DNA of 64,000 nt from IMG/VR virus record IMGVR_UViG_3300046460_000097. One strand, 5' to 3'. Positions 33,945-37,378 of this stretch are shown here, piece after piece (the first letter of the stretch is position 1; the number at the start of each line of letters is the position of its first letter). Origin of the DNA: a virus (taxonomy: Duplodnaviria > Caudoviricetes). Position numbers and translations under genes: made by a program. The notes under the pieces are model-generated. The model worked only from the letters and a program-made list of their open reading frames with translations. It had not been told where the DNA came from and did no database searches.

Positions 33945-34265
33945 ATGTTCATCAGAATACTTAGTCCAAAGGAATACGAGGACAGTCTTCAGCGGATGGT
34001 CAGTACCTTAACGGAACTGGAGAGTGAAATTATTCTTCTGCGACGTAAGGCACGGACCATACACATCCTGGACATCTACAGTTACAAGACATACGCTCAG
34101 TTGAACGAAGCAGCCGATCGTCTTAGCGATTCTGCTAGAAAGCTGAATGAAGAAATCAGTCGCACGCAGAAACGTGGTTACATGTTAGCGTTCACTAAAC
34201 CGGCGTGGGTAGACAAGTTTCAAGAGCTGGTTAGAAAACTTCCCGATACATTAAGAAACCGTTAG
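33945..34265 (+). CDS. Hypothetical helical protein
   Basis: Operon context. Confidence 0.6.
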   Translation: MFIRILSPKEYEDSLQRMVSTLTELESEIILLRRKARTIHILDIYSYKTYAQLNEAADRLSDSARKLNEEISRTQKRGYMLAFTKPAWVDKFQELVRKLPDTLRNR

Positions 34266-34278
34266 CAGGAGATTCACC

Positions 34279-34521
34279 ATGGACCGTACTACCATTCGTC
34301 AACAGATCAAGAAGCTGAACGAAGAAGCACAAACTTACAAAGGCTGCAAGCACCAAATCCTCTCCGCCGGTTATAACCTGCGAGTGGGCGTGTTCCGTAG
34401 TGCGGTGAATGTACGGGTGATGGACCAGATGAAAGCTGTCGGTCGTGCCCTCCGCGAAGAAGTCAAGAAACTTCGCCAAGAAGAGACTGCCATTATCGGT
34501 AGCAACTCGGTAATGCTCTAA
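34279..34521 (+). CDS. Hypothetical basic protein
   Basis: AGGAG RBS. Confidence 0.7.
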   Translation: MDRTTIRQQIKKLNEEAQTYKGCKHQILSAGYNLRVGVFRSAVNVRVMDQMKAVGRALREEVKKLRQEETAIIGSNSVML

Positions 34522-34534
34522 ACTAAAGATTCCT

Positions 34535-34573
34535 TATAACCCTCCTATCCCTTGATGGGGTAGGAGGGTTATA
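34535..34573. terminator. Bidirectional hairpin (TATAAC family)
   Basis: TATAACCCTCCTATCCC-ttgat-GGGGTAGGAGGGTTATA between convergent genes. Confidence 0.75.
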
Positions 34574-34594
34574 GTTGTGGTTTCTTTTTTTGTC

Positions 34595-35428
34595 TCAGGA
34601 GAAACTATTATGTGTAACGACCCAGTCGTCTATGATGTACAAGCTGTCTTCGCTGTCAATGCTGATGCAAGCTGTTCCCATGGGTTTGAGTTGTTCAAAG
34701 GAAACAATCTTGAGTTTGACGTCTTCGTACAGACTCAAGTCAATGATAGAACCCAGGCTGTCACCCAGTAACCCGTCTACGAGCCCCACGATGTCCCTGT
34801 GCTTGAATTCAACCCGATACAGTGATTCATACGGGTCTAGCGTAGCGACGCCCCCAAGGCTCCACATGAGCTCCTTGAAGTTAGCAGCTCCTGTCTGGTT
34901 TTCCATCAGGACACTAACACCCCTCTCCGATATATGAACACTGGATAGTTCGATCATACGTTCTGCAAGTGCGTAGCGGTCTCCATATGAGAGTTCCATC
35001 ACTGGGCTGTCTATAACTATACCAGATGAAACAAGAGAAGCCGCCAGCTGATGGAGGTCACGGTCGAGGCCCACCGTAGCTATGCTAGTCCCCCCTACCT
35101 CCCCCACTACCGGCAAGTAGTAACAGAACTGATCGAAGTGCCCGACAATATCTTGGGTGGTCGTAACGTACCCCTGTGCACTCGGCTCGGCTTCGTGTAC
35201 TTGCCAAAGATGTAGTGGGTGAGAATCAGCTGTGCGGCCATCCTCTAAGGTAAACCGAAAGCATTCAGTAACACCCTGAGGGAAACAGTTAGTGATGTTC
35301 GCTACGTTCCCCTTAGGCCCGATCACTTGGTCGCCTATCTTAAGGTCGCCAAGTCTTGTCCAGCCCCCTGGTGTCTTTACCAGGGTATGAAGTGGCATAG
35401 CTTTGCCACTAGCGAAGATGTTTACCAT
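34595..35428 (-). CDS. Stand-alone intein/Hint protein (class-3 signature) with vestigial exteins
   Basis: Block A K|AMPLHTLVKTPGGW..LGDL.IGD.V; block B DG...HLWQV; block F TACISID; block G VVTHN|S; AAGG RBS before ATG 35428. Confidence 0.85.
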   Translation of the reverse strand: MVNIFASGKAMPLHTLVKTPGGWTRLGDLKIGDQVIGPKGNVANITNCFPQGVTECFRFTLEDGRTADSHPLHLWQVHEAEPSAQGYVTTTQDIVGHFDQFCYYLPVVGEVGGTSIATVGLDRDLHQLAASLVSSGIVIDSPVMELSYGDRYALAERMIELSSVHISERGVSVLMENQTGAANFKELMWSLGGVATLDPYESLYRVEFKHRDIVGLVDGLLGDSLGSIIDLSLYEDVKLKIVSFEQLKPMGTACISIDSEDSLYIIDDWVVTHNSFS

Positions 35429-35457
35429 AAACCTTGTCCTTAAAAGGGAAACCAATA

Positions 35458-36736: not shown

Positions 36737-37378
36737 TTAAGGTGCTGTAGCGGCAGCCAAGGCTGCTTCCAACTCAAGGTTGTATGCTTGAGCTGCGGCC
36801 AGCTGAGCAGTCAGGGCATTTACCTTGGCTACATCATTACTGGCGTCAGTGATCTTACCCTTGCGGGTATTCTCGTAGGCGTCTGCTTGCGCTTGGCTGG
36901 TGTAACCAACAGTCGGGATCGTACCCAATGTAACGCGGGCGGTAATACCAACAGTTGTCAGCAGGTAGTTGGCCATGTGGTCCATTGCCTGTTGCAGGGT
37001 TTGTTGCATGCTCGGAGGAACGGCGCCCACGTCAGCCACAATGCACATACGTTCATACGACACACCATCGACCAGAGGAAACGAGGTCAGGTAAGTAGTA
37101 GGAACGTAAACAGGAATCCCGTTACGGTCCATCAAGGAAACGATGATCGCGTCTGCTGCTTTGGCACGAGCCAGCACAGTAGGGTAATCCTCGGCGACAA
37201 CACCCACCGGTGCGAACACCAGCGTGTACAGGTCGAGCTTAGCCTGTTCCATCTCGAAGATGGTACGGGTCGCTTCAACGGTGTAGTACTTGCTCTGATC
37301 GACAATGGTGTTAAACGGAGCAGATGCTTCAAATCGTCCCGCAGCATGAATCGCGGGGATGATGTTTTTGTCAGCCAT
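36737..37378 (-). CDS. Probable virion structural protein (phiKZ-like core)
   Basis: Co-oriented with 37381-38724 in the core block; C-terminal coiled coil. Confidence 0.65.
   Translation of the reverse strand: MADKNIIPAIHAAGRFEASAPFNTIVDQSKYYTVEATRTIFEMEQAKLDLYTLVFAPVGVVAEDYPTVLARAKAADAIIVSLMDRNGIPVYVPTTYLTSFPLVDGVSYERMCIVADVGAVPPSMQQTLQQAMDHMANYLLTTVGITARVTLGTIPTVGYTSQAQADAYENTRKGKITDASNDVAKVNALTAQLAAAQAYNLELEAALAAATAP

Follow-up and report, generated by a model that had tools for sequence, protein, structure and literature searches.

Inteins are generally treated as selfish passengers, which persist by way of important host proteins and clean splicing. The subject of the present analysis is an intein gene that is almost devoid of exteins, located on the reverse strand at positions 34595-35428 of a 64,000-nucleotide stretch of DNA (the whole stretch is referred to as the window) from the virus record IMGVR_UViG_3300046460_000097 (Caudoviricetes). 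Its product, P0001, carries the signature of the class 3 inteins, which are defined by the WCT triplet, that is, Trp at B:12, Cys at F:4, and Thr at G:5 (PMC3196547). The sole extein-poor intein described so far is Arth_1007 of Arthrobacter sp. FB24, a class 3 intein without His B:10 and Cys F:4 that was dead in vitro; in the view of its authors it is a dead pseudogene, and the first decayed intein of this kind that they knew of (Tori & Perler 2011, PMC3196547). It resembles the window gene in being a phage-derived class 3 intein with very short exteins (52 and 14 amino acids, matching no host protein). However, Arth_1007 is a single case from a prophage remnant that was read as decaying, whereas in the family described here the residues are intact, many lineages are represented, and the ratio of non-synonymous to synonymous substitution rates (omega) is about 0.09.

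Intein-derived genes that stand alone are exemplified by HO and WHO of yeast, in which Hint and LAGLIDADG modules serve a non-splicing function in the absence of exteins. These eukaryotic proteins are active nucleases with an added C-terminal zinc finger and without motif G, and it was mis-homing or fusion that gave rise to them (Coughlan et al. 2020, PMC7282813). In contrast, motif G is present in the window gene, a catalytic Asp, a zinc finger, or another added domain is not, and the gene goes back to deletion of its host gene in situ. WhiA and the LAGLIDADG maturases share with the window gene the absence of the catalytic acidic residue, and the middle domain of P0001 matches WhiA as well as the nuclease I-DmoI (Z 6.8 each); WhiA, however, possesses two LAGLIDADG domains and a helix-turn-helix, whereas P0001 has a single acidic half-domain nested in the Hint fold. 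Autoprocessing by a Hint fold without extein ligation is also found in the bacterial intein-like (BIL) and Hedgehog Hog domains (structural Z 15-17). These process a large functional flanking protein, while the window gene is flanked by a short, non-conserved leader and tail. Phrase searches of the literature for a free-standing, orphan, or stand-alone intein gave no paper, and none describing one in phages was found; a 2025 survey of ~800 actinophage inteins reports non-canonical architectures, but term searches in it found no extein-less intein genes.

The closest system is the intein in the P-loop of the helicases of the EL gp166/phiKZ gp203 type, in its embedded form in EL-like phages, which is like the window intein in its full-length homology, in the remnants of the insertion site, in the class 3 signature, in the degenerate single LAGLIDADG domain, and in its locus. 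The EL intein is embedded in a helicase, whereas the window copy has exteins of 9 and 3 residues and no helicase. Judged from the sequences compared below, the window gene probably belongs to a domesticated, extein-less intein family of jumbo phages.

Identity of the intein and its helicase origin

Translation of the open reading frame (ORF) gives a 9-amino acid leader (MVNIFASGK), a 265-amino acid intein, and a 3-amino acid tail (SFS). This is not the arrangement of an intein in the strict sense, which lies in frame inside a host protein and ligates both parts of it. An earlier note, made from the sequence without database searches, had described just these minimal exteins, and its ORF, translation, and quoted motifs are all in place. 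Pfam gave no match for the ORF of P0001; PHROGs gave matches only to intein-bearing terminase, primase, and helicase-loader families, by way of the Hint N-lobe. In a search of solved inteins, P0001 was matched by gp41-1 (E 6e-9) and by the class 3 DnaB intein of M. smegmatis, 6bs8 (E 2e-6), and the alignments to both assign His73 and Trp75 to block B and Cys254 and Thr272-His273-Asn274 to blocks F and G. The first intein residue, Ala10, which follows SGK, is non-nucleophilic and aligns with residue 1 of the EL and class 3 DnaB inteins. The WCT triplet (W75, C254, T272) aligns with its counterparts in 6bs8 and is invariant in the family alignment A1, and His B:10 (H73), the C-terminal His-Asn (H273-N274), and the +1 nucleophile Ser275 are all present in the window copy.

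An AlphaFold2 model of P0001, calculated from an alignment of 32 sequences, reached a predicted local distance difference test score (pLDDT) of 89.6 and a predicted template modelling score (pTM) of 0.88. It matches PI-SceI with a Z score of 20.7 over 260 residues and mini-inteins with Z scores of 15-19; the middle domain, residues 118-233, matches I-DmoI and WhiA (both at the value given above), I-Tsp061I (5.1), and I-CreI (5.0). Solved-intein alignments, the model, and homology to the EL intein thus confirm a complete class 3-type intein with an inserted LAGLIDADG-like domain, almost without exteins, which is the orphan intein with intact splicing residues that had been proposed. The accompanying claim of eroded LAGLIDADG remnants stands for the degenerate motif, but only one half-domain is present. 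In our reading, for which the alpha-beta-beta-alpha-beta-beta-alpha layout of the model and what is known of the LAGLIDADG fold are the two grounds, ELMWSLGG would be no second motif but the structural Lxx(L)GG helix of the single half-domain.

In a tblastn search of phage genomes, the best full-length matches fell within the "DNA helicase" that Pseudomonas phage EL and related phages encode (41% identity, 98% of the query). The helicase EL gp166 has 940 amino acids and carries its intein between ...PGSGK and TFTSLAW, i.e., in the Walker-A loop. The window intein is 42% identical to the EL intein over the full length, including the junctions SGK-A and HN-(S/T)F(S/T), and 60-62% identical to the inteins of uncultured EL-like phages. 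In the leader, MVNIF represents helicase codons 1-5 (sister helicases start with MFNLF or MFNLFSVAVKQTG), and ASGK represents the last four N-extein residues, a Walker-A remnant of GSGK; the joined exteins, ASGK-S, had been taken for such a remnant before, and they indeed correspond to GSGK and the T that border the intein in the EL helicase. The gene order upstream is that of EL, with a divergent gp167-like gene, a DUF7194 gene, and a gp169-like structural gene, and of EL gp166 only residues 149-416, the intein, match anywhere in the window.

The host helicase is the orthologue of phiKZ gp203 and is annotated in some records as a virion-associated SNF2-domain helicase. The gp203-type helicase was found in 204 jumbo-phage records, where it is usually intein-free (~680 amino acids). 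In phage RAY, one core and one accessory helicase of the SWI/SNF family have been described, of which gp131 was placed in the capsid and compared with phiKZ gp203 (Prichard et al., 10.1101/2023.02.24.529968). Two further genomes with a free-standing intein, G003 (100% complete) and G004 (96%), are without a match to the N- or C-extein at E<=1; the genomes G005 and G006, which are of the embedded type, matched strongly in the search with both exteins. A megablast search of the locus against phage records gave no match. From these comparisons the gene is an in-situ remnant of a gp203-type SNF2 helicase gene whose helicase is gone. The loss of the host gene with retention of the splicing residues, as suggested earlier, is evident from the absence of the exteins in the window, G003, and G004.

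Recurrence, junctions, and selection

In IMG/VR, the nearest public virus record, which is 46% complete, contains this ORF with 98% identity, and a contig of 15.5 kb from another soil study, which extends over the entire locus, differs by 15 substitutions and by no indel; an assembly error is ruled out by these two sequences. Local hypermutation or recent gene conversion relative to the nearest record was likewise rejected, the divergence of the ORF (~1.8% vs 1.06% locus-wide) being within the spread of other 500-bp bins. A length-restricted protein search revealed free-standing homologues of 248-309 amino acids with 44-59% identity, several of them on contigs of 219-239 kb, and an exhaustive profile-free search added P0015, P0016, and P0084 at 28-41% identity (26-39% in alignment A2). 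Altogether, the extein-less gene is present at the same locus in at least seven lineages, at 26-59% identity, and wherever context exists it is transcribed divergently from its gp167-like neighbour, with the DUF7194 and gp169-like genes next to it. In a scan of IMG/VR, 11 loci were obtained, four of them free-standing and seven embedded in helicases of ~940 amino acids (stop-to-stop frames of 948-1025 amino acids). The earlier note had counted embedding of orthologues in a full-length ATPase against an orphan intein if the present copy were a unique, decaying truncation or an artefact; such embedded orthologues exist, but the copy is neither unique nor decaying nor artefactual.

The free lineages differ in their junctions. 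Written as helicase start codons kept plus last N-extein codons kept, these are 5 + 4 in the window, 6 + 11 in P0010, 4 + 13 in the L003/L005 group, ~15 + 11 in the L004/L012 group, 17 + 7 in L019, and 4 + 10 in P0016. The C-terminal tails comprise SFS, SFT, TFLKPW, LCID, GDC, VVTR-stop (where the stop replaces His-Asn), and THS-stop. The most recent case is L019. Its DNA aligns with the embedded L013 at ~80% identity from the upstream gene and the start of the helicase through the intein to the gp165-like gene, and it is distinguished from L013 by two clean deletions, one covering N-extein codons ~18-140 and the other running from +2 of the C-extein up to the stop codon of the helicase. All deletions on the N side preserve the reading frame of the old helicase start codon; with five or six events, a chance of about (1/3)^5 would be calculated for this outcome, so that coincidence appears unlikely.

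The tree of the intein sequences shows the free forms as polyphyletic, with at least three changes forced by well-supported branches and with P0006/L019 nested inside the embedded clade. In a tree of four flanking genes (1634 columns) the free forms fall into two separate groups, and their union in one clade is rejected on this tree by the approximately unbiased (AU) test (p = 0.0013). One ancient deletion with purely vertical descent thereafter is rejected by the differing junctions, the intein tree, and the AU test. On this sequence record, the extein-less layout arose or was trimmed several times, with an own junction in each lineage.

With a maximum likelihood codon model, omega was 0.093 for nine free copies vs 0.092 for eight embedded copies. 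The cleanest pair is L004/L012, both of which are free, have their junction in common, and possess Leu at +1; here omega is 0.09 at a synonymous divergence (dS) of ~2, with values of 0.11 for Hint-N, 0.09 for the middle domain, and 0.06 for Hint-C. The middle domain is constrained in embedded copies as well (omega 0.05-0.14). Invariant residues at the putative surface of the protein include E145, Y148, R151, and H210-R211-D212. Within the population of the window phage, as sampled in other metagenomes, 10 synonymous vs 5 non-synonymous variants were counted (P = 0.0004), the neutral expectation being 77% non-synonymous. From the substitution patterns, the intein polypeptide is under purifying selection in all three sub-domains, to a degree equal to that of embedded copies. 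Retention for the sake of an antisense ORF, or of a role of the DNA or RNA in cis, was rejected on the grounds that it is the amino acid sequence in the frame of the intein that is constrained, with synonymous sites saturated.

The extein remnant of L019 has changed at ~10 of its 24 residues relative to the embedded helicase, compared with 12% in the intein, and this contrast between relaxed and constrained sequence is a natural internal control. In the 24-codon remnant itself (L019, positions 954-1025), VKQTGVF has become RRRTESS and GSGK has become ASGN, next to an intein that is 88% identical.

Proposed selected role and rival explanations

From this scenario it is considered likely that the extein-less intein is an exapted self-trimming protein, with a Hint and nuclease-dead LAGLIDADG body that has a role of its own, most likely in binding, which is older than the loss of the helicase. 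In an EL-like jumbo phage, the gene for the virion-associated SNF2 helicase lost its exteins by in-frame deletions hugging the intein, and the remnant would have been kept since as a functional protein-coding gene. Translation from the old helicase start codon and ribosome-binding site would yield a short pro-protein, of which the 9-amino acid leader would be removed by class 3 chemistry, with Cys254 attacking the Lys9-Ala10 bond, aided by His73 and Trp75. The 3-amino acid tail would be removed by cyclisation of Asn274 in those lineages where this Asn is still present. The product would be the same mature intein of ~265 amino acids that sister phages release from the helicase precursor. The selected activity would reside in the folded Hint and nuclease-dead LAGLIDADG-like body, most likely in binding or as an adaptor, a function which the excised intein would have had even when the helicase still carried it. 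According to the best reading of the sequences, the selected role would be neither splicing of the helicase with extein ligation nor canonical homing cleavage.

We also lean, if narrowly, towards the wider view that the excised intein of gp203-type helicases is in general an exapted protein with its own job, which would have outlived its host repeatedly, different lineages having independently kept only the self-maturing intein. In each lineage, a different deletion removed the surroundings and never the intein, and selection has remained as strong as before, in contrast to the pseudogene verdict on Arth_1007. If true, viral and prokaryotic systems would have their first domesticated family of extein-less inteins, and it would be shown directly that an intein can earn its keep by more than keeping out of the way. 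The old question of an own function for an excised intein would become testable, since phage EL, which has the embedded form, is cultured. In addition, the gene would provide a compact natural minimal class 3 precursor, with exteins of 9 and 3 amino acids, of possible use in studying or engineering class 3 cleavage.

Ligation of the exteins is unlikely to be what is maintained. The +1 residue is Leu in L004/L012 and Gly in P0015, His-Asn is replaced by Arg-stop in P0007, P0009, and P0011, and Asn by Ser-stop in P0016. As the +1 nucleophile or the terminal Asn is gone in about half of the free lineages, extein ligation cannot be the common selected function, and the sequences argue that full splicing, hence the 12-residue product, is not what is selected.

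Among the rivals, a free-standing homing endonuclease acting as a weapon in competition would be one, by which intein-less gp203-type helicase genes of co-infecting relatives are cut via a non-canonical active site or by a dimer, and to which a genome without the helicase would itself be immune. An intron-encoded endonuclease reportedly plays a part in competition between phiKZ-like phages, which is an analogy for such a role. The overall fold is that of endonuclease-bearing inteins (see the PI-SceI match), the middle domain is constrained even in embedded copies, the common intein-free helicase orthologues of other jumbo phages would be potential targets, and HO and WHO illustrate, by analogy, that extein-less inteins may survive as nucleases (PMC7282813). 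However, position 8 of the only LAGLIDADG motif, where the catalytic Asp or Glu is expected, is Ser162 in the window copy; a canonical ...GLLDTDG... is found in a few distant embedded relatives, while in all members of the EL clade, be they embedded or free, the motif reads M-I/L-E-x-S-G or is non-acidic in another way, and the catalytic Asp is therefore gone. No other acidic residue is conserved on the helix of the motif, only one half-domain is present, and all members are acidic proteins (isoelectric point, pI, 4.6-5.4). Nor was an intein-free helicase closer than ~52% identity found, so near relatives would not offer empty sites; this is in line with an intein that has become fixed in the helicases of EL-like phages and whose nuclease has been retired. 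A role as nuclease is thus regarded as unlikely.

A decaying relic in the manner of Arth_1007, left behind when the helicase died and merely awaiting deletion, is considered very unlikely. A precedent is given by that published inactive class 3 intein with its 52- and 14-amino acid exteins (PMC3196547), and several lineages have lost C-terminal splice residues. In the deep branch P0084, for which a search for relatives found only P0084 itself, the block-B His and the block-F Cys are lost as well; its ORF of 270 amino acids at the locus is intact and retains the middle-domain motifs EL.[YF].DR, L.WSLGG, and KH. The window allele, too, is substituted at two conserved positions: codon 251 (34676-34678) encodes Gly in place of the Glu of nearly all homologues (the E of the block-F E-T-x-C), and codon 163 (34940-34942) encodes Ser in place of the LAGLIDADG-motif Gly of nearly all relatives, whereas the nearest record and the independent soil contig have Glu251 and Gly163. 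On the other hand, ORFs are intact in at least seven lineages with saturated synonymous sites, omega equals that of embedded copies, the variants within the population are biased towards synonymous ones, and the N-side deletions are all in frame, the extein DNA having been removed completely and the intein spared each time. A decayed pseudogene would be recognized by lost catalytic residues and absent constraint, neither of which applies to the window copy, with its residues intact and omega at 0.09-0.16. Of the two alternatives put forward in the earlier note, a domesticated Hint protein is accordingly the one with which recurrence and purifying selection fit, and a recent relic is contradicted by the layout in at least seven diverged lineages with different junctions and by selection equal to that on embedded copies.

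It is most improbable that the chemistry itself is the function, i.e., that an autoprocessing Hint enzyme releases or transfers its leader peptide through a thioester at Cys254 (be it as Hedgehog-like transfer, as a spliced 12-mer, or as a redox- or metal-gated switch), for although all free lineages but P0084 retain Ala1, the ...SHPLHLW block with its His and Trp, Cys F:4, and Thr G:5, and every free lineage keeps a leader with Gly at -2, none beginning directly at Ala1, the leaders vary from 9 to 26 amino acids and are not conserved past the first four residues, the losses at the C-terminal junction mean that a ligated peptide is not a common product, and P0084 is without the nucleophile altogether.

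Several points weigh against the proposal that the intein is kept as a self-trimming protein with a binding role. The search for the helicase in this phage spans the 64-kb window, so that a relocated copy may exist elsewhere on the phage's contig (~218 kb). Self-trimming of leader and tail is predicted from the residues. The sample of the window clade is small (15 variants), and the deep "free" branches cross ancestors that were probably still embedded, for which reason only within-clade omega pairs are clean. The window protein has a pI of 4.6 and its middle domain a net charge of -12, which clashes with the nucleic-acid binding that a LAGLIDADG scaffold would be expected to show. Finally, the window copy may be a slightly impaired variant or may contain sequencing errors.

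Layout of the locus and related phages

The coordinates of the gene, its parts, and its neighbours are compiled in Table 1. To the own ribosome-binding site and terminator that had been ascribed to the gene correspond a Shine-Dalgarno-like motif and a terminator-like hairpin.

Table 1. Features of the orphan intein locus in the window.
Feature	Position	Strand	Basis
Whole gene, 277 codons and TGA stop (P0001)	34595-35428	-	Translation; ATG at 35428, stop 34595-34597
N-extein remnant, 9 codons, MVNIF + ASGK	35402-35428	-	Comparison with embedded helicases
Intein proper, 265 amino acids, Ala10-Asn274	34607-35401	-	EL gp166 intein match; PI-SceI structural match
Hint N-lobe, blocks A and B; His73 (B:10) and Trp75 (B:12) in ...SHPLHLW	35138-35401	-	Aligned to 6bs8 and gp41-1; alignment A1
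Single degenerate LAGLIDADG-like half-domain, residues ~118-235, alpha-beta-beta-alpha-beta-beta-alpha	34724-35077	-	Secondary structure of the model; structural matches
Hint C-lobe, blocks F and G; Cys254 (F:4), Thr272-His273-Asn274	34607-34723	-	Alignments
C-extein remnant SFS, +1 Ser275	34598-34606	-	Sister helicases: TFT/TLT/TVT
Shine-Dalgarno-like AAGGA, 8 nt before ATG	35437-35441	-	Read from sequence
Terminator-like hairpin, 18-bp stem, between convergent genes	34534-34574	.	Sequence
Divergent neighbour, EL gp167 homologue, 405 amino acids	35434-36651	+	BLASTP E 4e-42
DUF7194 gene, marks the helicase locus with the gp167- and gp169-like genes	36737-37378		Pfam DUF7194

The gap between the intein gene and its gp167-like neighbour (35429-35457) measures only ~5-30 nt, depending on the start chosen for the neighbour, and the spacing is equally tight in all related loci, embedded or free. 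Both promoters must therefore overlap coding sequence; within 35429-35457, none was assignable for either gene.

On the other side of the locus, the gp165-like gene, which follows the helicase in EL, L013, L004 (10865-11944), and L019 (1859-2275), is missing downstream in the window and in several other free-standing loci, among them L003, L005, L022, and L023, and G004 has only a distant paralogue elsewhere. Where it is missing, small opposite-strand genes (in the window, 33945-34521, + strand) abut the intein. The 3' deletion is thus larger in these lineages, and it still ends 3-6 codons from the intein.

The window originates from an uncultured EL-like jumbo phage. Near-identical sequence is present in soil and rhizosphere metagenomes of several separate studies, partial matches to the window were obtained in wetland and sediment runs, and related free-intein phages were assembled from samples of other kinds, one of them a food metagenome (L003). 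The genomes G005 (C1:124647-125417) and G006 (C1:27869-28648) contain a second full-length related intein (30% identity) in an ORF of ~800-826 amino acids, of which none was found in the complete free-form genomes G003 and G004. A more distant intein, located in an ORF of ~1080-1210 amino acids, is common to all four genomes, G003-G006.

In a free-standing sub-clade formed by L003 (10001-10882) and L005 (10001-10747), with the proteins P0007-P0009 and P0011, the middle domain has gained four cysteines, arranged as C-H-V-C on the first strand and a single Cys on each of the two strands that follow; neither the window copy nor the embedded copies possess them. By their arrangement, these cysteines could form a metal site.

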